From positions 1 to 38,716 of the forward strand of contig JAUVJU010000003.1 in the NCBI GenBank assembly GCA_030592285.1: a DNA stretch of 38,716 nucleotides, in the 5' to 3' direction. Positions 19,089-38,302 of this stretch are shown one piece after another. This DNA is from a candidate division WOR-3 bacterium (GTDB lineage Bacteria; Hydrothermota; 32-111). The position numbers were made by a program, and so were the translations under genes. The first letter of the stretch is position 1. Every line of letters begins with the position of its first letter. The notes beneath the pieces were generated by a model that saw only the letters and a list, made by a program, of their open reading frames with translations, did not search any database and was not told the DNA's origin.

Positions 19089-19152
19089 TACAAATTTGCA
19101 AAGTATTGAAAAAAAGTACCGTACAAATTTGCAAAGCATTGAAAAAAAGTAC
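19089..19152 (+). repeat. Tandem direct repeat, 2 x 31 bp at 33-bp period, abutting the -35 of the ATPase gene
   Basis: TACAAATTTGCAAAG(T/C)ATTGAAAAAAAGTAC at 19089 and 19122, one mismatch. Confidence 0.9.
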
Positions 19153-19186: not shown

Positions 19187-20383
19187 ATGAATAGAAAAAC
19201 ATATATTACATTATGGAAGGAAATAAACAAAGACGGTAAACCAATATTGATTATAGGACCAAGGCAGGTAGGAAAAACCACTCTTGCAAATCAGATTAGT
19301 AAGAAATATAAAAATTCATTTTACTATAATTATGATGAGTATCCTTTAAAAGTATTAAACAAGCCATATTTTTATGAGGAATTGAATAGAAGGGATTCAT
19401 CAAAACCACTAATTATATTTGATGAAATACACAAATTCTATAAATGGAAATCATATATAAAGGGTGTTTATGATAAAGATTCTTCCAAATATGATTTTAT
19501 TCTTACTGGAAGCGGGAGAATGGATTTGTATCAAAAGGGAGGAGATGCACTTACAGGACGAAAAAACAATTTATATCTTTTTCCATTTACATTAAGTGAA
19601 TTTTGTAAAAGAAGAAAAGTAGAAGGATTTTTATATGATCCTATGAATTTTATTAATTACAGCAAAAATAAAGAATCATATAAATTAATGAATATTTTTC
19701 TAGATATTTCTCCTTTCCCGGAGCCATTTTTAAAAAACAATAAAAGATTTTATAGAAGATGGAAAAAAGATTACAGAACACAATTAGTAAGGCAGGATAT
19801 AAGAGATGCTAGCAATATAATGGATATAATTAAACTAGAAAATCTGCTGTTATATATTCCTGAAAATGTATCATCAAATCTTTCATATCTTTCATGTGCT
19901 AAAATGCTTGAGGTCTCACCAAATACAATAAAGAAATGGCTATATCATTTGTCATCTTTTTTTCTTATATTTAGCATTATGCCTTACACAAAAACATCAA
20001 AAGCACTTCTGAAAGAAAAAAAATATTATATGTATGATTATGGGGTTGTAAATAATTTAGGTGCTAAATTTGAAAACATGATTGCTCTTGAATTATTAAG
20101 ATTAATTAACAATTTGAATGACTTGGGAGTTGATAATTTTGAGTTAAGATATATTAAAAATAGATTAGGAGAAGAAGTTGATTTTATTATACTTAAAAAT
20201 AATACCCCATTTTTATTAATAGAAGCAAAATATAATAATGATAATTTCAGTAAAACATTGTTAAAGTTTAGTGAAATATTTAATATAGCTGGAATTCAAT
20301 TAACAAATAAAAAAAATATTTATAGATTGAAAAACAAATGTGTACTTGTAAGTGCAAATAATTTTCTTTCTTCTTTGCCTTAA
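19187..20383 (+). CDS. AAA_14 / DUF4143-family ATPase with HTH and a C-terminal PD-(D/E)xK-like motif
   Basis: GPRQVGKT, IIFDEIH, LTGS, LTGR, KYYMYDYG, FEN, EVDFII..LIEAK. Confidence 0.88.
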   Translation: MNRKTYITLWKEINKDGKPILIIGPRQVGKTTLANQISKKYKNSFYYNYDEYPLKVLNKPYFYEELNRRDSSKPLIIFDEIHKFYKWKSYIKGVYDKDSSKYDFILTGSGRMDLYQKGGDALTGRKNNLYLFPFTLSEFCKRRKVEGFLYDPMNFINYSKNKESYKLMNIFLDISPFPEPFLKNNKRFYRRWKKDYRTQLVRQDIRDASNIMDIIKLENLLLYIPENVSSNLSYLSCAKMLEVSPNTIKKWLYHLSSFFLIFSIMPYTKTSKALLKEKKYYMYDYGVVNNLGAKFENMIALELLRLINNLNDLGVDNFELRYIKNRLGEEVDFIILKNNTPFLLIEAKYNNDNFSKTLLKFSEIFNIAGIQLTNKKNIYRLKNKCVLVSANNFLSSLP

Positions 20384-23940: not shown

Positions 23941-26900
23941 GAATATCAATCTTTATTTTGTATTTATAACTTTTTTTTATAGAATATAATTTTTTATACA
24001 ATTTTAATGATTTAATTTTATATGATTTTTTATTAGTTAATCGGTATAATTCAAAGAGGATCTCGGCCTGATTTTCATCATCTTTATACTTATTTAACAT
24101 ATTTTCTAAACAAGAAATTGCAGAATCATTATTTAAAAGTATATCTGATTTTACTTTTATAAATTCAATGTCAAAACTATGAGATTTGAAAAAATCGGTT
24201 AATGAATATTTTTCAATTTTCTTGATTATCTTATATATATTCTTATTCTTTTGTTCATAAAAGATCTCTGCTTTACATAAAAGACCTTTAATTAAACGAT
24301 CATCAACATTTAATGCTTTTGCTTTTTTAATCACTTTGTCTAAGTATTTGATTGCAATTTTGTATTCGCCTGTTATTTTATAAATTGAAACAAGATCAAA
24401 ATATATCGTAGAAAGTCTTTGATCTTCTTTCAATTCTTTTGCAAGAATTAGAGCTTTATTAAGATAATTAAGAGATTTTGATAGATCACCTATTTCAAAG
24501 TAAACATCACCAAGATTTGACAATACAGTTCTAATCCCACCTTTATCACCAATGCTCACTGCAAGATCATAGCTTAGATTATAAAATTTTAATGCTTCAG
24601 AATAATTTCCTTTTAATGTATAAATACTACCAAGATTATTTTGTAGAATTCTAATCACATATCTTTCTCCCAATTTATTGTTTTTTATGAGTAGTTTTTT
24701 GTATAAATCTTCAGCATTATCAAGATTTCCTTTAAGAAACTGGATATTTGCAATGTTGGTCAAAGCAGGAATTCTTTTCAGTCCCATTTTATTTGATATT
24801 TTTTTACTTTTATTAAAAAGCATAAGAGCTTTACTATAATTACCTTTATATTGATATATTAAGCCCATATTATTATATGTTAAGGCCTTATCAAATAGAA
24901 GTTTCTTCTCGCTTTTCTCGTTTTTTTCAATAAACAATAAATTCATATTGTAATAATACAATGCTTTTTCAAAATTGCCCAAATTACCATAAGCAATGCC
25001 ATAATTATTGTAAGTCCCCGAAATACCAACTTTTTCATTAGTCTTATTATATTTTTCTAAAGCCCTTTTAAATAACTTAATTGCATATTCATTATTGCCC
25101 AATCTTATTGATATATACCCATGTCTGTTTTCGGCATCTGCAATAATTAATTCATTTTTCAATTTATTCCCAATTCTTTTTATAGTTTTATAGATTTCAA
25201 TAGATTCTTTCCATCTACCTATTATTTCATAAATCTCCCCAATCTTCATTTTAATTGAAACAATTTTTCTGTTTTTCTTTTCATATTTTAATAATCTTTC
25301 ATATAGGGAAACAGCATCCTCATTTTTAAAATTTTCCTTTGCAAAATCACCGGCTAATAATAAATATTGTTTTGCTTCATTTTTCATTTCTGCCTGTTCA
25401 TAATGAAAAGCAATATCACTATAAAAATTTTTATTATTAATAAAGACCTTTTCCATTGTAATGGCAGCAATTTTATGCAATTTTTTTAACTGCTTTTTCA
25501 TTTGCATATTGTATGCAGCATCACGAAGCAAGCTATGTTTGAATAAATATTTTATTTGGGAAACAGCATTCCACAAATTTTCCTGTTCTCCCGTTTTCAA
25601 GATGGGTTTAATATTACTTTTACCTGATAGCATTGATGATAAAATATTAATATTAAATTCATTTCCAAGCACTGAGGCACTTTGAATAAGATTTCTTAAT
25701 TTTTGCGATAATCTATCTATTCGTGAAATTAGAATGGGATATATTCCCGAAGGAATATCAATATTAACTGCTTTTAATGAATATATATTGTTTTTTAATT
25801 CAATATATCTATTTTCAAATAAATACAAACAGAACTGTTCCATAAAAAAAGGATTGCTCTGCGTTTTTTTAAGGATCAAAGAATGCAATTTCTTATCAGT
25901 TTCATATCCTAACTGTAATTTCACAAATTCCTCAGTTTCTTCAGACTCAATTTTTTTAAGAATAATTTCTGAAACAAAAATATCCTTAATCGCCAACCTT
26001 GGTTTTTCGCCATTATCAAAGAATCTACTTGAAACCAAAAAAACACAAGGAAATTGATTTATATCATTGAATAATTGTAATAATAATTTATTTGAATCAG
26101 AATCCATCCATTGCAAATCCTCAATAATAATAATAAGCGGCTTGATGAGTGACAGGATCTTTATAAATGATATTATTCCAATAAGAAGATTATTAAACTT
26201 TGCCTTTGGATCAAGGGATAAAAGGTGGGATTCTTTGGTCTTAATATTCAAAAACTCGGCAATGATTTCTCTTCTGTCAATCAATTCGCGAAGTAATGCT
26301 TTTGCTTTTCTAGTATGAATTTTCCCTGCTGTTTCAATTAATTCATCAAATTTAGTATTAAATAATTTATTATTTTCTTTATTGGAATTGCTTTCATTTA
26401 CAGAAAAATATTTTTTAAGCATATATTCAAAAGGATTTAAACTTTTTTTAAGAATATTATCAGTTTTAAGAATAATCCTATTTGATTTTGATTTATACTC
26501 TTCAATAGAATTAAATATAATTCTTGTTTTACCAATACCAACATCTCCGTATACATAAACCAAGCCGCCATATTTGTTATTATTAATATGATTTAAGTGT
26601 TTAGAAATTAATTTTGATTCCCTTTTTCTGCCAACAAATTTTCCAGAGTAAAAAAACTCATCCTGAATATTTAGATTTCCAAGTAATTTATACAATTGGG
26701 TTTCTTTTGATTTTCCTTTAAAAGTAATGCTTCCTAAATACTCAATGTTATGGGACATCTGAATTTTTCTTCCTACATTTTCAGAAATCCATATTTCTCC
26801 CCAATCTGCTTTACTCATAAATCTTGCAGCCAAATTGACATTGTCACCCAAAACAGTATAAGTTGCTCTTATATTAGATCCAACAAGACCGGCATATACG

Positions 26901-27856
26901 GTTCCATAGGATAAGCCGGCCTTTATATCATTCCCATACAATTTTTTTATTTCCAAAACAAAGTCAATTGCCCGTATCATATTATTCTCATGTGAAATAG
27001 GAGCACCAAATAGTATAAGTACAAGATTATTCTTATCTCCAAAATCCAGTAAATTAAAATAACCGCCATAATTATCAGATAATGTAATGATTGTTGTGAT
27101 GAATTCATTTAATTTTTTAAAATCACTTAATTTCTTAAATTGCATAAAAACAGATACTACTTGTCTAAACTCACTCTTATTTTTATTTAATACATTGAAG
27201 GAAAAATACTGATTCAAAATCTTTTTGGAAATAATTTGCTTTTTAGGATGAAATGATTGTGATTTGACTTTATATTGTTTAAGTTTGAAAAAGCCATTCC
27301 TATTTTTAATTAATATTTTTTTTGTTTTCAATAATTTTGCAGCAGAACCATGTAATAATATTTCTCCAGGTTTTGTACAATGTTCTGCATTAACAGCATT
27401 ATTTATTGAATTACCCTTAAAAAAGAATGTTCTATGGTTTTCTTTACCAAGAATTCCCCAATTTAATAAACCATGTGAAATTCCAATTTTTAATGAAATT
27501 GATAAGCCCTTTATAAGCTTGGATTTGATCTTATAATTAGTATAGATATTCTGGATCTCACAGGCACAGTTAGAAACGGTATCCATTGCTGTATTAGGAA
27601 AGATTGCTGTAAAAGCATCGCCTGCAAAAGTAGAAATAAAACCATTGTTTGAGTATATTACATCAATCATTTGACCAAACACCTTGTTTATTATTGAAGA
27701 TAATTCTTCTGCTCCTGCTTTTCCATGAGAAGAAAGCTGTTCGGTTATGGAAGTGAACCCGGAAATATCAAGAAACATAACGGATGCCTTAAACGAACCA
27801 TTATACTCCTTGTGTTTTTCCTTTTCGGCAATGAATACAGGAATATAATTTATCAT
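23933..27856 (-). CDS. Soluble adenylyl cyclase-like protein: tandem class III cyclase domains + STAND P-loop NTPase + TPRs
   Basis: FLDISGFT, FAGDA, GDNVNLAARFM; FVGR, GDVGIGKT, IIEDLQWMD, NPFF, FKHSLLRD; C-terminal TPR repeats. Confidence 0.9.
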   Translation of the reverse strand: MINYIPVFIAEKEKHKEYNGSFKASVMFLDISGFTSITEQLSSHGKAGAEELSSIINKVFGQMIDVIYSNNGFISTFAGDAFTAIFPNTAMDTVSNCACEIQNIYTNYKIKSKLIKGLSISLKIGISHGLLNWGILGKENHRTFFFKGNSINNAVNAEHCTKPGEILLHGSAAKLLKTKKILIKNRNGFFKLKQYKVKSQSFHPKKQIISKKILNQYFSFNVLNKNKSEFRQVVSVFMQFKKLSDFKKLNEFITTIITLSDNYGGYFNLLDFGDKNNLVLILFGAPISHENNMIRAIDFVLEIKKLYGNDIKAGLSYGTVYAGLVGSNIRATYTVLGDNVNLAARFMSKADWGEIWISENVGRKIQMSHNIEYLGSITFKGKSKETQLYKLLGNLNIQDEFFYSGKFVGRKRESKLISKHLNHINNNKYGGLVYVYGDVGIGKTRIIFNSIEEYKSKSNRIILKTDNILKKSLNPFEYMLKKYFSVNESNSNKENNKLFNTKFDELIETAGKIHTRKAKALLRELIDRREIIAEFLNIKTKESHLLSLDPKAKFNNLLIGIISFIKILSLIKPLIIIIEDLQWMDSDSNKLLLQLFNDINQFPCVFLVSSRFFDNGEKPRLAIKDIFVSEIILKKIESEETEEFVKLQLGYETDKKLHSLILKKTQSNPFFMEQFCLYLFENRYIELKNNIYSLKAVNIDIPSGIYPILISRIDRLSQKLRNLIQSASVLGNEFNINILSSMLSGKSNIKPILKTGEQENLWNAVSQIKYLFKHSLLRDAAYNMQMKKQLKKLHKIAAITMEKVFINNKNFYSDIAFHYEQAEMKNEAKQYLLLAGDFAKENFKNEDAVSLYERLLKYEKKNRKIVSIKMKIGEIYEIIGRWKESIEIYKTIKRIGNKLKNELIIADAENRHGYISIRLGNNEYAIKLFKRALEKYNKTNEKVGISGTYNNYGIAYGNLGNFEKALYYYNMNLLFIEKNEKSEKKLLFDKALTYNNMGLIYQYKGNYSKALMLFNKSKKISNKMGLKRIPALTNIANIQFLKGNLDNAEDLYKKLLIKNNKLGERYVIRILQNNLGSIYTLKGNYSEALKFYNLSYDLAVSIGDKGGIRTVLSNLGDVYFEIGDLSKSLNYLNKALILAKELKEDQRLSTIYFDLVSIYKITGEYKIAIKYLDKVIKKAKALNVDDRLIKGLLCKAEIFYEQKNKNIYKIIKKIEKYSLTDFFKSHSFDIEFIKVKSDILLNNDSAISCLENMLNKYKDDENQAEILFELYRLTNKKSYKIKSLKLYKKLYSIKKSYKYKIKIDILK

Positions 27857-31931: not shown

Positions 31932-34265
31932 ATGAAAAAGAATATTGTTTTATTGTTCTTGATAATAATGTGTATAAATATTATATCAAAGGAAGTGATT
32001 CGTATTAAATGGAATGATTTTGAATTTGTTAATAAAGTATTAAAGGAAACAGACATTGCAGGACAGAAGAGATTTCACTTTGTTGATATTGTTGCCGATG
32101 AGGGGCAGATAAATACACTTATCTCACATGGAATAGCATTTGAAAAGGTTACAAGGCCATCGGCAAAAGCAAGCTTTTTATCATTGGACAGCATATATAA
32201 TTGGATGGACAATCTCCACTCTGCATATCCATTAATAACAGATATTGATACAATTGGATATACAAATGTTTACGGATATCCTTTAAAGATATTAAAGATC
32301 AATGGGGCAAATCCCTTAGTGCAGGAAGCCAATCAAAATGGATTTCTTTTAATGGGTTGTCATCATGCCCGTGAATGGCAAACAGCATCCCTTCCAATGT
32401 TTTGGGCTGATTCCATTCTAAATACTTATGCAAGCGATTTGCAGATACAGGATCTTATTGATAGTACATTTATTATTGTTTTTCCTGTTGTTAATCCGGA
32501 TGGATACTATTATTCAATAGAGTTTGATGACAATTGGCGAAAAAACAGAACTCTAAGAAATTCAGTTTATGGTGTTGATCTAAACAGAAATTATCCCGGA
32601 TCTTGTTTTGGTGAACCATTAGCTGATTGGGGTTTTATTGCCAATTCAGCCACAACACATTATCCTTCTTCATATGTTTATTGTGGACCATATCCAGCAA
32701 GCGAGATTGAAGTTAGAGCAGTACAAGATCTGATAAAGACCTATAATTTCAAGATCACTATTTCATTACATTCATATGCAGAAGCAATTATATGGCCCTG
32801 GGGTTCCGTTTTATATGGTGCTCCCGATTCACTGCTTCTTGAGTATGTTGGAACCAATATGGCAAATCGTATGCGTAAACAGGATGGTGTAAGCGTGTAC
32901 GATGCATATCAATCCGTAGGGTTGTATCCAACAAGCGGTGATAGTGATGACTGGATCTATGGTTATGCAAAATTTATTTTAGGCAAAACAATCTTACCAT
33001 TTACTTATGAAGTTGATGTTTCCTTTAATAATGCCACTCCTATTCAATTAGATTCACTTTATAGAAGGGTATATCCAGGCATACTATATGGGGCATTTTA
33101 CACGGATTCATTAAGTGGAACAGCAATAGATGTTCCATTAGAACCATTATTAAGTTTCAGCACAGATACTTTAAAGTGGAGTACGGAAAATGGTGAGAAT
33201 GCATCTTCTTTTGATGTTTATACATATAAAAATCCATTTACTATTTGTGATTCAATGAACAATATTCTGCTTTTTAATAGTGATAATTTTGAAAAAGTTT
33301 TTTTATCCGGTGCAACAAATGATACTATTTATCATGCTATAGATATTGCTTCAGGAACTGGTATTCTGCAAAGTATTCACAAATTTTTACCAAATAGTAC
33401 GGATTCAATTAAAGTAAAGGTAGACTATGATCTTGAATTTAATTATGATAAGGCATTTATTGAAGTTAGTGAGAATAATCTTGAATATACAATTATTGAT
33501 ACTATTAATGGAATATTAAATGGTTCTTCTTCCGGATGGGAGGAATTATCTTTTTCCCTTAATGAATATGCTGGAAAAGAAATCTTTATTAGGATTAGAA
33601 CCATTTATGATGGGAACACTTTTGGCAGTGGTTTATATATTGATGACATAGAACCCATACAGGTTTTTGATACATTTTTTGTTTTAGTGGATGACATTAC
33701 AGATTCAATGCTTTTGATAGAAGCAATATATGATAATAATTATTTTGCAGTTATTCCGAATATTTTTAATAGACAAACATGGCTTTCCGATAGAGAGCAG
33801 TATGCTTTAACTGCAATAAATGAAAATTATATTTCCTGCGTTATTGAAAAGGGGTTTATAAAATTAAAATTTAAAACAACAAGTATGGAAAACACATTTG
33901 TTATTTATAAAAAAATAAATAATAAATATGAAAAAGTTGCCTGTGTTTCAGACAATGAATGGATTGATAAAAATCCTATAAATGGAAAAAATGAATATCA
34001 GGTGAAGTTTTTCCAATCGGATAATTATGTAGAGGAAAAACATATTCAAATATTCTATTCAGATATTTCAGAAATATTATCATTAAATAATTCATTTTTA
34101 ACAATGGACCTATTAAACAATAAACTTGAAAAACTCCGCACTAATTACAGAATAGATATATATGATAAATCAGGAAGAAGCATAGAATATGTTAAATCAC
34201 CGGGTATATATTTTCTTAAAGAAAAGGAATCGGATATTAAATATAAGATAATGATAATGGAATAG
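31932..34265 (+). CDS. Secreted M14 zinc carboxypeptidase (carboxypeptidase T-like) with a beta-sandwich domain and putative T9SS-like C-terminal domain
   Basis: Signal peptide; HARE, NPDG, WRKNR, GVDLNRN, LHSY; YDLE..YD..GLYIDDI domain; tail IYDKSGR..PGIYFL. Confidence 0.88.
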   Translation: MKKNIVLLFLIIMCINIISKEVIRIKWNDFEFVNKVLKETDIAGQKRFHFVDIVADEGQINTLISHGIAFEKVTRPSAKASFLSLDSIYNWMDNLHSAYPLITDIDTIGYTNVYGYPLKILKINGANPLVQEANQNGFLLMGCHHAREWQTASLPMFWADSILNTYASDLQIQDLIDSTFIIVFPVVNPDGYYYSIEFDDNWRKNRTLRNSVYGVDLNRNYPGSCFGEPLADWGFIANSATTHYPSSYVYCGPYPASEIEVRAVQDLIKTYNFKITISLHSYAEAIIWPWGSVLYGAPDSLLLEYVGTNMANRMRKQDGVSVYDAYQSVGLYPTSGDSDDWIYGYAKFILGKTILPFTYEVDVSFNNATPIQLDSLYRRVYPGILYGAFYTDSLSGTAIDVPLEPLLSFSTDTLKWSTENGENASSFDVYTYKNPFTICDSMNNILLFNSDNFEKVFLSGATNDTIYHAIDIASGTGILQSIHKFLPNSTDSIKVKVDYDLEFNYDKAFIEVSENNLEYTIIDTINGILNGSSSGWEELSFSLNEYAGKEIFIRIRTIYDGNTFGSGLYIDDIEPIQVFDTFFVLVDDITDSMLLIEAIYDNNYFAVIPNIFNRQTWLSDREQYALTAINENYISCVIEKGFIKLKFKTTSMENTFVIYKKINNKYEKVACVSDNEWIDKNPINGKNEYQVKFFQSDNYVEEKHIQIFYSDISEILSLNNSFLTMDLLNNKLEKLRTNYRIDIYDKSGRSIEYVKSPGIYFLKEKESDIKYKIMIME

Positions 34266-34314
34266 AAATGAAAACAAATTTGCTGTTTATAGTAATGTAA
34301 GAGAGGTTCGAATC

Positions 34315-35187
34315 ATGATAAACATTCAATTACTTAAAAACATACAAAGAATCACCATAACAGCTCTTTTTGCGGACGATGAATTGATGAATCAATTGGT
34401 TCTAAAAGGGGGAAGTGCCATAAGTTTAATCTATGGTTTATCGAATAGAGCTTCTGTTGATTTGGATTTTTCAATGGAATTAGATTTTGACCAATTATAT
34501 TTAGATCAAATCGAAAATAAAATTGAGATGCTTTTGAAAAAAGAGTTTAAAAGGAACAATTATACAATCTTTGATTTTAAATTTGATGCAAAACCTAAAA
34601 ACAACAATGATCCAAATTGGGGTGGCTATAAAATTGAATTTAAATTGATTGAAACAGATAAATATAATGAAAATAATTTAAATAAAGCAAGGCGTGAATC
34701 AATACCCCTTGATGATGAGTTTCATAAGAAATTTACTATTGATATTAGTAAATATGAATATACTCATGAAAAAACAGAGAAGGAAATTGATGGATATATA
34801 ATTTATGTTTATACAATAGATTTAATTATTATTGAAAAAATCCGTGCAATTTGTCAGCAAAATCCTGAATATAAAAAAATAATCAAATCTGCTACTACAA
34901 GACCAAGATCAAAGGATTTTTATGATATTTATATATTACTAAAGGACAAAAATTCAGGTGAATTTATTGATAAAATCAAAGATACTATAAAAATTGTATT
35001 CAAACAGAAGAAGGTACCATTGGAATACTTGATGCAGATAAGTAACCAAAAGAATATACATAAAGCAGACTTTGCATCATTGCGGGACACTTTACCTGTT
35101 AAAGAAAAACTGGAAGAATTTAATGTATATTTTGCATTTATTGTAGAATTGTGCAGAAATATTTATAAATCAATATTTCCAGGATAA
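34315..35187 (+). CDS. AbiEii/AbiGii-family nucleotidyltransferase (type IV TA toxin-like)
   Basis: LVLKGGSAI, RASVDLDFS, EKIRA, RSKDFYDIY. Confidence 0.88.
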   Translation: MINIQLLKNIQRITITALFADDELMNQLVLKGGSAISLIYGLSNRASVDLDFSMELDFDQLYLDQIENKIEMLLKKEFKRNNYTIFDFKFDAKPKNNNDPNWGGYKIEFKLIETDKYNENNLNKARRESIPLDDEFHKKFTIDISKYEYTHEKTEKEIDGYIIYVYTIDLIIIEKIRAICQQNPEYKKIIKSATTRPRSKDFYDIYILLKDKNSGEFIDKIKDTIKIVFKQKKVPLEYLMQISNQKNIHKADFASLRDTLPVKEKLEEFNVYFAFIVELCRNIYKSIFPG

Positions 35188-36047
35188 TAAACATTCCATT
35201 CCTTATCAAATTTTAGATTTGATAATTTGTGACCAAGATAAAATTTTATTTTAAATGGATTTTTCTTTAATAAGGATAATTGCTGATTTGAATAAACACC
35301 GGATTTTGATAAATAAAAACCGATTGATTGAATATATGGATAAACGAAATCCATCTGTTTAAGATATGCCTGAATCCTATTAAGAGAAATTTTTCCTTTT
35401 ACATTATAATATGCATTCAGAACTTCAGAAATTCCACCAGCATATTCGGGTCTTACTGCTATGTCAATTAAGGTTCTTTCAATATCAGTAATAGAAATTG
35501 ATTCATCATCAAAATTTATTGATATAACCCCTAAATTGTTATGGTTTTTACCATTGAGAATGCAAACTCTATAATTATTCATTTTACAGATATTGTTTGA
35601 TAAACGCTGTGGTCTTAAGAATGCCATATCCACCTTCTCTTGTGATAAAATAGCATTATTAGGGGATCTGGGTTTTGGTGATTGTTCAATATTCAAATAA
35701 TATGTTTTTGGTATTTGATCTGTCAAATTGTGTATAAACATAGCAGAATAATGAGAAAAGTATGAATTTGGTTTTATTGATAAAAGAGTTTTATTCAAAG
35801 AGCCATCTCTCCAAATATAGAGAGATTTGCTGAAAGAGGGGAATTGGAATTTAAGAGACTTAAGAAAAGTATTTTCTTCAAGTAAAGAAATGAATTTTTT
35901 TGTACTAGTATTTTGTGGCAATCTCCAAAAATCAATATTGTTTGAAAGGATTTCGGATATATCTGAATAAGAAAAGACATTATTTTCTAATGAATCAAAT
36001 AATTTAATAATATCCTTTTTGGCTATTTGAAATCTTGTTTGTTTCAC
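35163..36047 (-). CDS. AbiEi-family antitoxin/transcriptional regulator-like protein
   Basis: YFSHYSAMFIHNLTDQIP, ITDIERTLIDIAVRPEYAGG, IGFYL, WNVY. GTG start at 36047 with AGGAG SD; the longer ORF-track start runs through the promoter. Confidence 0.8.
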   Translation of the reverse strand: MKQTRFQIAKKDIIKLFDSLENNVFSYSDISEILSNNIDFWRLPQNTSTKKFISLLEENTFLKSLKFQFPSFSKSLYIWRDGSLNKTLLSIKPNSYFSHYSAMFIHNLTDQIPKTYYLNIEQSPKPRSPNNAILSQEKVDMAFLRPQRLSNNICKMNNYRVCILNGKNHNNLGVISINFDDESISITDIERTLIDIAVRPEYAGGISEVLNAYYNVKGKISLNRIQAYLKQMDFVYPYIQSIGFYLSKSGVYSNQQLSLLKKNPFKIKFYLGHKLSNLKFDKEWNVYYPGNIDL

Positions 36048-36093
36048 AAATTCTCCTAATAAAATCCAAATACTATATATATCTCCTTGAATA

Positions 36094-36121
36094 ATAATAA
36101 CATAAATAAATAATTTGTCAA
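36094..36121 (-). promoter_or_regulatory. Sigma70 promoter of the abiEi-like gene
   Basis: Minus strand TTGACA-16-TATTAT with TGn extension. Confidence 0.65.
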
Positions 36122-36123
36122 TA

Positions 36124-36374
36124 GTTATCCTCATTAGTATATATACTAATGAGGAAATAACCATATAGTATTAAAGAATACATAAGTTGATATAAATGGA
36201 AACTTATAAGGGATATCAACAAAAATACATATTATATTATATAGTATATATACTATATAATACAATGTATATTTTCCATATTTATACATATAAGTTACTT
36301 TTATATTGGAACTTATATATGTTTTTAATGCAAATTAGGTTATGATATATAGTATACATACTATATATCATGAC
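36124..36374. repeat. Array of alternating palindromes at about 108-bp period
   Basis: Type A, core TAGTATA(T/C)ATACTA: 36128-36155, 36235-36262, 36342-36371. Type B, ATAAGTT-N12/13-AACTTAT: 36182-36207, 36290-36316. Confidence 0.85.
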
Positions 36375-36526
36375 TCATGTAGCAAACAATTATATATATG
36401 TAAATTTATTAATTACAGAATAAATTAAATACTAAGAACAAATATCAGTTATTAATCAAGAAAACAACGAAAAAGTTGATGATAATAATAGACAAATGGC
36501 ATAAAAAGTGCTATAATAGCGGACTT

Positions 36527-38302
36527 ATGAAAGAAAATATTAAAAAACTGAACATTTTAAAAAGCTTAAAAAGATTATTTCCATATATGATGGGATATAA
36601 ATTGCTTTTTATAAGTGGTTTTTTGGCAATGATATTTATTTCCATAGCACAACTTTTAGACCCATTGATTTTAGCACATATTATTGATGTATCAGTACCC
36701 AATAAAGATATTGCGGATATGGTAAGATATGGAATATTCTTTGTATTAGTGATCATGGTTACAGGTGTTATGTCAAATTTCCAAACAATACTGCTTGCAC
36801 GACTGGGAGTTAAAATAATTATTGATCTAAAAAGACAGGTTTTTGAACATATACTTAAATTACCCGTTTCATATTTTGATGAAAACCCTGTAGGAAAATT
36901 AATTGCACGAGTTGAAAGTGATTGTGAAAAAGTAAAACAACTATTTTCTCAATTCTCAATCATGGTATTTGGCAGCATTTTATTTTTTATTGGAATGATA
37001 GCAGTATTATTCTGGAAAAATTGGCAAATCACTTTTTTTCTTATCATTCCATTACCATTTGTATTTGTACTTATAATGTTCGCAATAAGATATCTTGCTA
37101 CTTATTATAGAAAAATAAGACATTTATATGCCGAATTATCGGGTCTGCTTGCAGAATATATACAGGGAACCCATATTGTACAGATATTCAATAAACGAAA
37201 GATTGTTGAAAATATTATTAATAAAAAGAGCAAAGAAAAGAAAAAGCAGGAAACAAAAGCTGCTTTTTATGAATATTCATTTTGGAGTATTTATTCCTTT
37301 CTTATTGAAACAATGTTTATTGTTCTTGTGATCTTACTTACTACACCAAAAATATTTGCGGGCTTAATGACCTTGGGAACATTGATTGTATTTATTCAAT
37401 ATGGAAGAAGAATGTTTGAACCAATTATTATGATCTCAGAAACATTTAATATGATTCAAAGGGCATTTGTTTCATTGGAGCGCATATTCAGTATTCTTGA
37501 TCTGGAAACAGAAAAAAACAATGAAAAAGGGATTGTTCCAATATTCAATAAAAGTATTAGATTTGATAATGTATGGTTTAAATACAAGAAAGACGAATGG
37601 GTATTAAAAGATATTAATTTTGAAATAAAGAAAGGTGAAAAAATTGCCTTTGTAGGTGCTTCCGGCAGTGGCAAAACAACTACTGTATCACTTTTAGAGC
37701 GATTTTATGCTGTTGATAAGGGTAGTATAACTGTTGACAGTAATAATATAAATGATTTTCCATTACAACAGTGGAGAAAAATGATAGGGCTTGTTTTGCA
37801 GGATATTTATCTATTCCCCGGTAATATTATTGAAAATGTAAGAATTTATAATAATGATATTAATAAAGAACAGGTTGAAAAGGCATTAAAAGCAGTTGAG
37901 GCAGATAATTTTATTTCTAAGAAAAAACATGGCATTGATATGGAACTTAATGAAAGAGGACAAAATATATCTGTTGGTGAAAAGCAATTACTAAGTTTTG
38001 CCAGAGCATTAGTTATTTCTCCTGAAATAGTAATAATGGACGAGGCAACATCATCTGTTGATGCACAGACAGAAAAAAAGATTCAAAAGGTAATGGATAA
38101 GATTTTAAAGAATAAAACAGCAATTATAGTTGCACATAGATTATCATCCGTTGTTAATGCGGACAAGATACTATTGTTTTCAAATGGAAAGATAATTGCA
38201 AGAGGAAAACATTCGGAATTGATGAAAACATCTAAGGAATATCAGAAACTTGTTGAATTACAATTTCTATCAGTTAAGGGAGACAGCAATGCATCACATT
38301 AA
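36527..38302 (+). CDS. ABC exporter TMD-NBD subunit (second pair, MdlB-like)
   Basis: GKLIARVESD, GASGSGKT, ISVGEKQ, MDEAT, AHRL. Start ATG 36527 follows TAGACA-17-TATAAT. Confidence 0.92.
   Translation: MKENIKKLNILKSLKRLFPYMMGYKLLFISGFLAMIFISIAQLLDPLILAHIIDVSVPNKDIADMVRYGIFFVLVIMVTGVMSNFQTILLARLGVKIIIDLKRQVFEHILKLPVSYFDENPVGKLIARVESDCEKVKQLFSQFSIMVFGSILFFIGMIAVLFWKNWQITFFLIIPLPFVFVLIMFAIRYLATYYRKIRHLYAELSGLLAEYIQGTHIVQIFNKRKIVENIINKKSKEKKKQETKAAFYEYSFWSIYSFLIETMFIVLVILLTTPKIFAGLMTLGTLIVFIQYGRRMFEPIIMISETFNMIQRAFVSLERIFSILDLETEKNNEKGIVPIFNKSIRFDNVWFKYKKDEWVLKDINFEIKKGEKIAFVGASGSGKTTTVSLLERFYAVDKGSITVDSNNINDFPLQQWRKMIGLVLQDIYLFPGNIIENVRIYNNDINKEQVEKALKAVEADNFISKKKHGIDMELNERGQNISVGEKQLLSFARALVISPEIVIMDEATSSVDAQTEKKIQKVMDKILKNKTAIIVAHRLSSVVNADKILLFSNGKIIARGKHSELMKTSKEYQKLVELQFLSVKGDSNASH

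Follow-up and report, generated by a model that had tools for sequence, protein, structure and literature searches.

The question raised by this locus is whether an AbiEii-like gene and an AbiEi-like gene that point towards each other and overlap at their 3' ends form a genuine toxin-antitoxin pair, and whether this arrangement belongs to one assembly or to a lineage. Teaching and searches alike treat toxin-antitoxin and abortive-infection modules as operons. In AbiE, which is classed as type IV and has recently been argued to be type VII, the regulator gene precedes the nucleotidyltransferase gene (Dy 2014), and this antitoxin-first, co-directional order is absent from the pair described here. 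By the window we mean the whole stretch of 38,716 nucleotides that was analysed, from contig JAUVJU010000003.1 of a candidate division WOR-3 bacterium; the features discussed are collected in Table 1.

The gene pair and its ends

Table 1. Coordinates of the convergent gene pair and of the elements upstream of abiEi (positions in the window)
Feature	Position	Strand	Description
abiEii	34315..35187	+	290-aa open reading frame, ATG start, stop included; predicted DUF1814/AbiEii nucleotidyltransferase toxin gene
abiEi	35163..36047	-	294 aa, GTG start at 36047, stop TAA 35163-35165; predicted AbiEi-family antitoxin/regulator
3' overlap of abiEii and abiEi	35163..35187	both	25 nt; each stop codon lies inside the last codons of the other gene
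Shine-Dalgarno-like AGGAG	36053..36057	-	5 nt before the abiEi GTG; read from the sequence
Sigma-70-like promoter	36094..36121	-	TTGACA-16-TATTAT with TG; consensus match only, 11/12 positions
Palindrome 1	36128..36155		perfect 28 bp around the core TAGTATATATACTA; its centre lies 94 nt before the abiEi GTG
Palindrome 2	36235..36262		28-bp unit, same 14-bp core TAGTATATATACTA, centre 201 nt upstream of the abiEi GTG
Palindrome 3	36343..36370		28-bp unit around the core TAGTATACATACTA; its centre lies 309 nt before the abiEi GTG

An earlier note on this DNA had described two intact genes on opposite strands, a 25-bp overlap of their 3' ends and no terminator between them. The open reading frames and the sequence confirm the genes and their overlap, and a search of both strands from 34000 to 36600 found 0 terminator-like sites, shuffled sequences giving a mean of 0.3. 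The longest abiEi open reading frame on the - strand begins at 36164, upstream of the GTG at 36047. We place the start at 36047 because of the starts of homologues, because an AGGAG precedes this GTG by 5 nt and because the promoter match lies inside the longer frame. The homologue at locus L004, from an independent genome of another genus, begins with M-K-T-T-R-F at the residue equivalent to this GTG, and an AbiEi length of 288-305 aa in 75 loci supports the same choice. The sigma-70-like match sits between palindrome 1 and the abiEi start, and it is weak evidence for a promoter, given that 28 matches of this kind occur in the region where shuffled sequences would lead one to expect 24.9. A co-directional peptidase gene ends 49 nt before the abiEii start with no terminator between the two, so that abiEii of the window may also be transcribed from upstream. 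An Rfam search of the window gave 0 matches, and near the locus Tandem Repeats Finder reported only the palindrome region, as a 21-nt row of 2.3 copies.

The family assignments proposed in the earlier note hold for both proteins. AbiEii matches Pfam PF08843 over residues 18-272 (E 2.1e-24, 87.2 bits, cut-off 22.5) and PADLOC PDLC02306 (E 1.6e-21), the latter being one of 24 PADLOC AbiEii models that match. Its motifs, G32-G33, S47-x-D49-x-D51, E174-K175, D201 and D204, do not vary across 44 clade members, and G32, G33, D49, D51, E174, K175, D201 and D204 align with PDB 9hlo_B. Two residues before DxD, S47 falls on the Thr of the R-S-T-V-D-I-D stretch of the same chain. In S. agalactiae AbiEii the phospho-acceptor is T65 (preprint 10.64898/2026.01.19.700257), and the mutant positions named for AbiEii are G49/G50, D67/D69 and D192 (Dy 2014). 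As far as the alignment can tell, the catalytic and putative phospho-acceptor residues of the window protein are intact. Its partner matches PADLOC PDLC02267 at E 6.2e-27, and a profile-profile comparison (hhalign) with co-directional AbiEi gives 99.5% probability and E 1.4e-22 over 235 columns. The match to Pfam AbiEi_1 is under the cut-off (15.6 bits against 22.2), and in the clade this model matches only 19/46 members at E <= 0.01. Judged by its profiles, the partner is a member of the AbiEi family.

Orientation and partnership among relatives

Tabulating gene orientation, as the earlier note had proposed, found close and distant homologues alike to be convergent: in 83/83 related loci examined the two genes stand tail-to-tail, with AbiEi behind AbiEii. 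These are L004, 80 loci from genome contigs, a B. subtilis plasmid (L125) and L127; the 80 are the best-scoring of 497 relatives, a number that is itself a minimum among one-genome-per-species contigs. They cover more than 10 phyla and small plasmids, and include complete chromosomes. The 3' ends overlap in 78 of the 81 loci measured, by exactly 24 nt (the mode) in 41, with a gap in only 3/81 and a full range of -10 to 41 nt. Layout and overlap persist at 34-49% protein identity over these phyla, with 0 reversions in the 83 loci. Recurrence in each of the relatives looked at places the arrangement well outside chance. Other AbiE loci in the same phylum are co-directional and antitoxin-first in 29/30 cases and convergent in 0/30. 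In a quick tree, 76 convergent AbiEii proteins form one side of a branch of length 1.87 (SH-aLRT 95).

The source genome is a metagenome-assembled genome of 205 contigs, and a local inversion or an assembly error could have been suspected for that reason. The same 25-nt convergent overlap occurs in L004, in another genus and at identities of 58% for AbiEii and 66% for AbiEi, and the layout recurs in complete chromosomes and plasmids; the explanation as an assembly error or a one-off inversion is refuted. This is a real and widespread architectural variant of AbiE, previously undescribed in the literature searched. That search covered text and returned no convergent AbiE, while figures (such as Dy 2014 Fig. 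3A) and supplements might show one. The earlier statement that the architecture is distinct from characterised AbiE and MenAT operons stands. The suggestion of a new system went too far, because by their sequences both proteins are clear AbiEii and AbiEi members, and what we have is a variant of AbiE.

The distribution suggests that convergent AbiE is a discrete, horizontally spread lineage in which the layout is fixed with overlapping 3' ends, and we regard this as probable, as part of the explanation given below. Matches at E <= 1e-10 come from 2/401 genomes of an even Bacteroidota sample, and the two score more than 360 bits. There are 43 plasmid records with an AbiEi relative at E <= 1e-20, and the module occurs on small Rep/Mob plasmids; phage records held no AbiEi relative at E <= 1e-10. 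Cultured carriers include a Bacillus subtilis strain, with a Rep/MobV plasmid of 9.1 kb, and isolates of Pedobacter and Rufibacter. Synteny gave no readable empty insertion site, as contigs break at the locus (contig C205 of genome G008 ends about 29 nt past the match).

Whether the two genes are partners at all can also be judged from these loci. An orphan AbiEii toxin might lie by chance beside an unrelated regulator, which would agree with the low Pfam score of the window AbiEi and with the label 'hypothetical protein' that RefSeq gives to the partner in 13/15 of the plasmid rows listed. Against this, the pair co-occurs in fixed geometry in every locus examined while the flanking genes differ in identity and orientation, and the partner has full-length profile homology to AbiEi. 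A model of the AbiEii-AbiEi complex also passes its controls: its median score over 3 runs is 0.68, whereas the best of 3 controls scored 0.02, and the mark is reached by 116/157 solved pairs and 2/215 mismatched pairs. At least 93% of contacts are common to the runs, the partner pLDDT is at least 88, and the predicted interface comprises AbiEi residues 173-259. The model supports binding of AbiEii to AbiEi, with the reservation that a like complex is already solved (9hlo) and the pass may only reflect likeness to it. A chance association is extremely improbable, and we consider it close to refuted. The annotation as 'hypothetical protein', together with weak PADLOC matches (75-93 bits against 215-600 bits for canonical pairs), makes it likely that these modules are counted as orphan toxins.

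AbiE of Streptococcus agalactiae and Lactococcus lactis resembles the window pair in its DUF1814/AbiEii toxin with GG, DxD and a Ser/Thr two residues before DxD, in its AbiEi-family antitoxin, a two-domain protein whose N-terminal wHTH and C-terminal antitoxicity domain are putative in the window pair, in the inverted repeats upstream of abiEi and in its presence on plasmids. It differs in being an antitoxin-first bicistronic operon, whereas the window pair is convergent with overlapping 3' ends; in addition, the toxin gene of the window clade has no AbiEi operator, and the AbiEi is about 294 aa long.

MenAT3 and MenAT4 of Mycobacterium tuberculosis (Rv2827c-Rv2826c and Rv1044-Rv1045) have a COG5340 antitoxin of about 295 aa, close in size to the putative COG5340 protein of the window pair. 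Phosphorylation beside the DxD motif is described as turning their toxin off. Their antitoxin promoter contains several sets of inverted repeats (Beck 2020). Unlike the window pair these are co-directional operons, and searches of PDB sequences, whether with the window AbiEi alone or with its profile, brought no meaningful match to any chain. The order of DUF1814 genes is not fixed, since in RlegTA, SanaTA and SdenTA the toxin gene comes first with the antitoxin downstream. The available text on these systems speaks of upstream and downstream partners, with antitoxins of 136-205 aa, and mentions no convergent or overlapping layout.

The palindrome array upstream of abiEi

Besides its layout the clade has a further hallmark: upstream of abiEi stand 28-bp palindromes, near-perfect and two to four in number, with GTATATATAC at their centre. 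The earlier note had pointed to an upstream array, which proves to be real and to belong to the module: 73/77 loci carry 2-4 palindromes. The 32.9 kb upstream of abiEi contain 187 of them, a density of 5.68 per kb, compared with 0.18 per kb in the regions before abiEii and 0.007 per kb within the pair. The core alone occurs 191 times in the same 32.9 kb, whereas the 22.9 kb before abiEii contain 0 copies. The three palindromes of the window are the only copies in the 2.14-Mb genome. The self-complementarity of palindrome 2 extends further with one mismatch, and in genome G009 a 32-nt stretch identical to the palindrome 2 region lies upstream of abiEi. An operator shared by both upstream regions was rejected as a candidate, because the longest common k-mers are no longer than in mismatched locus pairs and the core is absent upstream of abiEii. 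Use of the palindrome centre as a -10 box with a canonical -35 found no support; on the sense strand a TTGACA-like element at 16-18 nt accompanies 12% of proximal palindromes against 13% of random positions, in a set where many hosts do not use the TTGACA consensus.

AbiEi-family antitoxins autoregulate through inverted repeats (Dy 2014; Beck 2020), and the near-invariant TATAC core with its semi-conserved positions 6-11 fits base-specific contacts by a protein. Arm symmetry is 96-100% at positions 2-13 and 56% at position 15, and the length is sharp at 28 bp. At arm positions 12-14 symmetry is 98%, 94% and 87%, with near uniform base use. When copies from a single locus are compared, their outer arms are unlike in 128/140 pairs, yet each copy stays self-complementary. 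A plain dimer operator does not predict such an array, because the symmetry extends to non-conserved positions that differ between copies in one locus. The array makes a well-defined, conserved cis-element that obeys an unexplained rule of symmetry.

One answer to this rule would be that the palindromes act as DNA structures instead of, or besides, operators read by sequence, with cruciforms or hairpins that sense supercoiling or single-stranded DNA and tune abiEi transcription to topology or infection. The sharp length, the symmetry at positions 12-14 with near uniform base use and the differing but self-complementary arms all speak for it. So do a palindrome centre that is AT-rich even in GC-rich genomes and the arm mismatches, of which 4 are G-U on the sense strand, 5 on the antisense strand and 20 of other types, with no sign of a one-strand RNA hairpin. 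Arm-to-arm template switching could, however, hold palindrome arms identical without selection for structure, and the conserved core suits a protein that reads bases. Long inverted-repeat AbiEi operators are also known, as in S. agalactiae, with one 23-3-23 site (Dy 2014) where the window clade has separate 28-bp palindromes about 100-110 bp apart. On balance we find a structural role rather improbable. Among changed positions between related loci 47/61 keep symmetry, a count that is biased because both members were pre-selected as palindromes. No AbiEi alignment column discriminates the core variant (A/G at half-site position 4), the top columns marking only one Bacteroidota subclade.

Transcription and the possible role of the convergent layout

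The earlier note had inferred that the two genes are transcribed independently, and the anatomy of the loci supports this. The core is confined to one of the two upstream regions, and among the flanking genes of 74 loci the upstream neighbour at abiEii is divergent in 33, for which reason these 33 abiEii genes need their own promoter. Terminator-like sites downstream of the two stops number 32 and 32 against 28 and 21 on the sense strands, which is no enrichment, and such a site lies within 100 nt of the stop in only 2/75 and 1/75 loci; this scarcity speaks for read-through. For positions 34200-36500 no RNA run was listed, and three metatranscriptome runs of the same study contained next to none of its words. 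Control by antisense read-through or polymerase collision is plausible; Rho-dependent termination could stop the read-through and leave no hairpin signal.

We consider it likely that the locus is a functional AbiE-type toxin-antitoxin or abortive-infection module, of a convergent lineage, with candidate damping by antisense transcription or collision. By analogy with the characterised systems, AbiEii would act as a nucleotidyltransferase and stop translation through the addition of nucleotides to tRNA 3' ends, and the C-terminal domain of AbiEi would bind AbiEii and silence the toxin, probably because it induces S47 to become auto-phosphorylated. With its N-terminal domain AbiEi would bind the palindromes and repress its own promoter, and abiEii, from its anatomy, would have a promoter outside AbiEi control. 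With no terminator between the genes, each transcript would run antisense into the other gene, so that the autoregulated abiEi promoter may damp toxin expression too, by antisense pairing or collision. The lineage can do without an operon if the antitoxin is catalytic, since it then need not be made in step with the toxin. The layout fits the view of AbiEi as catalytic, inducing toxin auto-phosphorylation, and not stoichiometric. The lineage has long been without an operon and offers a natural test of the need for co-transcription.

It is possible, though in our judgement unlikely, that the convergent layout is instead a frozen accident without regulatory function, an ancestral inversion tolerated because the antitoxin acts catalytically. 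The genes would then be transcribed and terminated separately (e.g. by Rho), and the palindromes would simply autoregulate abiEi. The AbiEii tail has the look of a passenger, as it is not conserved as protein (the consensus ends in 'x') and mirrors the conserved AbiEi C-terminus, W-R-L-F/Y-x-P-K-G-F; the variable length of the overlap points the same way. Such an accident is hard to reconcile with a layout and overlap kept without reversion at low identity and over many phyla, with a gap between the genes that almost never occurs, and with terminator-like sites that are not enriched behind either stop.

A more elaborate reading, which we hold to be improbable, takes the locus as an ancient AbiE lineage under hybrid control, in which the antitoxin mRNA is also the antisense RNA of the toxin and vice versa, and a cruciform-prone array of 28-bp palindromes gates the antitoxin promoter by reading DNA topology or transcription shut-off. 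If this were true, convergent transcription would serve as a switch that infection turns from antitoxin to toxin, with no need for antitoxin proteolysis.

For the module with antisense or collision damping, which we prefer, a parallel exists in the type I systems txpA/RatA and bsrG/SR4 of Bacillus subtilis, whose RNAs are convergent and antisense with overlapping 3' ends. There the toxin and antitoxin transcripts pair at their 3' ends, as proposed for the window pair. The antitoxin of those systems is RNA only, whereas the antisense transcript of the window pair would also encode a protein antitoxin.

The convergent gene pair and its conservation

The window is an entire 38.7-kb contig of a 2.14-Mb, 205-contig metagenome-assembled genome. 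The earlier note had described in it an AbiEii-like nucleotidyltransferase gene (abiEii) and an AbiEi-like partner (abiEi) with overlapping 3' ends and no intervening terminator, and both points were borne out: the two open reading frames share their 3' ends as listed in the table, and a consensus scan of positions 34000-36600 found no terminator-like site on either strand. The GTG taken by the note as the start of abiEi is almost certainly the true one, because homologues of its product start at the equivalent M-x-x-T-R-F/I-x-I-A-K, an AGGAG lies 5 nt upstream of this GTG, and the 39 extra codons of the longest reading frame traverse a promoter-like match. At 35001-36000 the + strand GC skew is +0.125 despite - strand coding, whereas skew is negative over other - strand genes in the window, such as -0.16 to -0.25 at 24001-27000. 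An intergenic 33-nt tandem repeat (1.9 copies, 96% matches) lies at 19089-19152, upstream of an ORF at 19187.

Coordinates of the AbiE features in the window and of a canonical pair in the same genome
Feature	Position	Strand	Details
abiEii ORF	34315..35187	+	encodes 290 aa
abiEi ORF	end 35163, start GTG 36047	-	longest ORF starts at 36164; ORF call and homologue starts
abiEii/abiEi overlap	35163-35187	both	25 nt shared; each stop codon inside the partner gene
Palindrome cores TAGTATA(T/C)ATACTA	36135, 36242, 36350		in the 428-bp region upstream of abiEi; sequence scan
Canonical co-directional pair (genome G000)	contig C154, L003:577-2253	-	AbiEi 279 aa, then AbiEii 277 aa

Close AbiEii relatives (E <= 1e-10) are present in 2 of the 272 genomes of the phylum, the window's own and one from another genus (G009), whose pair has the same convergent layout, the same 25-nt overlap and identities of 58% (AbiEii) and 66% (AbiEi). 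In this relative the abiEii gene is split across the ends of contigs C69 and C27 (L004, L005), both of which repeat the same codons; it is an assembly break within the gene and not a broken gene. A protein search identified 475 relatives at E <= 1e-5 among 1444 candidates, and a scan of one-genome-per-species contigs identified at least 497 stretches encoding a relative, of which the layout survey covers the best 80 by score. All of these 80 loci contain a nearly full-length AbiEi homologue (34-49% identity) directly downstream on the opposite strand, and their hosts include Bacteroidota, Ignavibacteriota, Nitrospirota, Chloroflexota, Planctomycetota, Acidobacteriota, Pseudomonadota, Bacillota, Thermodesulfobacteriota, Zixiibacteriota and Cloacimonadota. 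The pair is also convergent in a locus (L127) from an evenly drawn sample of 401 Bacteroidota genomes and on a Rep/MobV plasmid of Bacillus subtilis (9.1 kb; L125), in whose RefSeq annotation AbiEi is a hypothetical protein with a 49-nt overlap with the AbiEii gene. Counting these two, the G009 pair and the 80 best-scoring loci, the layout is convergent in 83 of 83 related loci, with no co-directional homologue found among them; the distinct architecture proposed in the note is conserved and not a one-off. With genes extended to the stop codon, the 3' ends overlap in 78 of 81 loci, touch in 2 and are separated by 10 nt in 1. Overlaps of exactly 24 nt account for 41 of the 81 loci, and here the codons for the conserved AbiEi C-terminus W-R/K-L-F/Y-x-P-K-G-F/L face those for the AbiEii tail L-K/E-x-L-W-x-x.

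Comparison with canonical AbiE systems

A Pfam AbiEii search matched 120 of the 272 phylum genomes, including six matches in the window's own 2.1-Mb genome. A PADLOC scan of the 121 ORFs with 140 aa or more in the 30 best of these loci found the AbiEi gene directly upstream on the same strand in 29; the remaining locus, truncated 469 nt upstream, has no visible partner, and none of the 30 is a convergent pair. This agrees with Dy et al. (2014), in which the AbiE regulator gene precedes the NTase gene. Beside the canonical pair on contig C154 we noted two further ORFs, one of 82 aa resembling a RelE/ParE-type toxin (L003:2549-2797, - strand) and one partial and ATPase-like. Elsewhere in the phylum, a gene behind a normal AbiEi gene (L116:76-2241, - strand, genome G078) encodes a 722-aa AbiEii-RAMP fusion protein, its N-terminal AbiEii domain being joined to a Cmr1/Csm3-like RAMP region (PADLOC PDLC01564, E 4.3e-23, residues 263-495), and a canonical AbiEii gene in genome G215 (L098) is interrupted by a single in-frame TAG, both halves still matching the model.

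Canonical pairs score 215-600 bits against PADLOC, whereas the window proteins score 75 and 93 bits, and PADLOC therefore lacks a model specific to the convergent lineage. A quick maximum-likelihood tree of 104 AbiEii proteins puts the 76 convergent ones together on one side of a branch (SH-aLRT 95, length 1.87) whose neighbours are nine canonical PDLC02304-type proteins, a separation that arises partly by construction since the convergent set was selected for closest relationship to the query. A true gap exists all the same, because a clade profile run against 401 Bacteroidota genomes returned two matches, both above 360 bits, and no others down to E 1e-10.

The abiEii product matches Pfam AbiEii (PF08843; E 2.1e-24, 87.2 bits) and 24 PADLOC AbiEii models (best PDLC02306, 75.2 bits), and by homology it would be a tRNA-modifying nucleotidyltransferase toxin. 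Residues G32, G33, R45, S47, D49, D51, E174, K175, D201 and D204 are invariant among 44 clade members. The closest solved chain in a PDB sequence search is 9hlo_B, 'AbiGII' (E 1.1e-6), whose R-S-T-V-D-I-D aligns with R-A-S-V-D-L-D of the window protein. In Streptococcus agalactiae AbiEii, according to a 2026 preprint (10.64898/2026.01.19.700257), the phospho-acceptor that AbiEi uses to switch the toxin off is T65, two residues before D67-x-D69; S47 of the window protein occupies this position.

The abiEi product falls below the cut-off of Pfam AbiEi_1 and matches 23 PADLOC AbiEi models (best PDLC02267, E 6.2e-27, covering positions 6-237 of the 252 in the profile); neither product has an NCBIfam model. 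Alignment of a profile of 46 clade sequences with one of 10 canonical co-directional sequences gave 99.5% probability (E 1.4e-22, 235 columns, query 20-289), which argues that the partner is a full-length AbiEi relative, by homology the putative antitoxin of AbiEii and a DNA-binding autoregulator. Sequence searches with AbiEi found no matching PDB chain. The AbiEi-AbiEii complex model passed its controls with two clade alignments (0.68, median of three runs, vs 0.02 for the best control), a mark that 116 of 157 solved pairs attained, as did 2 of 215 mismatched ones. At least 93% of contacts agreed between runs and the partner pLDDT was at least 88, with AbiEi residues 173-259 placed against AbiEii residues 16-25, 80 and 159-162. 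Because a like complex has already been solved, the pass would show likeness to it rather than proof of binding.

The palindrome array and transcription of the pair

The upstream array to which the note had referred lies before abiEi, is real and recurs across the clade. The three cores in the window are spaced 107 and 108 bp, each at the centre of a longer palindrome, and are the only copies in the whole genome; a reversed control pattern gave none. At one threshold, the clade loci contain 187 palindromes in 32.9 kb upstream of abiEi (5.68 per kb), compared with 0.18 per kb before abiEii, 0.007 within the pair itself and 0.043 over the remainder of these loci. Allowing one mismatch, the core occurs 191 times upstream of abiEi vs 0 in 22.9 kb upstream of abiEii. 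Among 77 loci, 40 have two palindromes, 26 three, 7 four and 1 one, and the three with none hold less than 160 nt of DNA upstream of abiEi. Spacing between centres peaks at 95-113 bp, and the centre, GTATATATAC or in some subclades GCATATATGC, is also present in GC-rich Planctomycetota and Acidobacteriota. The unit is 28 bp, since arm complementarity (180 distinct palindromes) stays at 96-100% across positions 2-13, counted from the centre, and drops from 87% at position 14 to 56% at position 15, with 29-47% beyond; the B. subtilis plasmid has two 28-bp copies. The 29 canonical loci contain neither such an array nor such a core. A lone half-site-like stretch, 76% complementary to one arm of palindrome 2, lies at 36059-36079 between the promoter-like match and the abiEi start codon.

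The most likely role of the palindromes is that of AbiEi operators, given that relatives of this protein recognise long inverted repeats in the promoters of their own genes. Half-site positions 12, 13 and 14 have near-uniform base use across loci and vary among the copies of a single locus, yet are 98%, 94% and 87% Watson-Crick symmetric; symmetry at positions that are not read is not expected of a plain dimer operator. In 140 within-locus pairs, the copies are identical from the centre outwards for a median of 6 nt, compared with a median arm length of 14 nt, and 128 arms continue at least 4 nt past the shared run. Such symmetry might be predicted if the palindromes act as cruciform or hairpin DNA. 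Arm-to-arm template switching is a possible source of palindrome arm identity, and it too might account for these positions. The few mismatches at positions 2-13 (4 G-U on one strand, 5 on the opposite strand, 20 others) occur in the chance ratio and so do not point to an RNA hairpin read from a single strand.

The abiEii gene has none of these candidate AbiEi operators upstream. The gap before it has a median of 232 nt, and in the 33 of 74 loci where the upstream neighbour is divergent it must have its own promoter. Terminator-like sites number 32 and 32 behind the two stops vs 28 and 21 on the coding strands of this same DNA (about 66 kb each), and lie within 100 nt of the stop in 2 of 75 and 1 of 75 loci. 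Since they are no commoner behind the stops, each transcript would run antisense into the partner gene unless Rho intervenes, and we infer that this run-through, or polymerase collision, may have a regulatory effect. A catalytic antitoxin would need no stoichiometric coupling, so loss of the operon could be tolerable.

Distribution and standing of the module

The architecture is real, conserved and apparently undescribed, and has a conserved candidate operator array; searches of article text gave no description of convergent AbiE or of this array. The 'new system' of the note holds as a variant of AbiE with a distinct conserved architecture and not as a new system, because both window proteins are AbiEii and AbiEi family members but the pair departs from the operon arrangement treated as general in the AbiE literature. 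The module is very widely spread though rare per genome (2 of 272 in the window's phylum, 2 of 401 in the Bacteroidota sample). No phage record carrying it was found. It does occur on small plasmids: an AbiEi relative at E <= 1e-20 is encoded in 43 plasmid records, and among the matches listed the partner is annotated 'hypothetical protein' in 13 of 15 plasmid rows.
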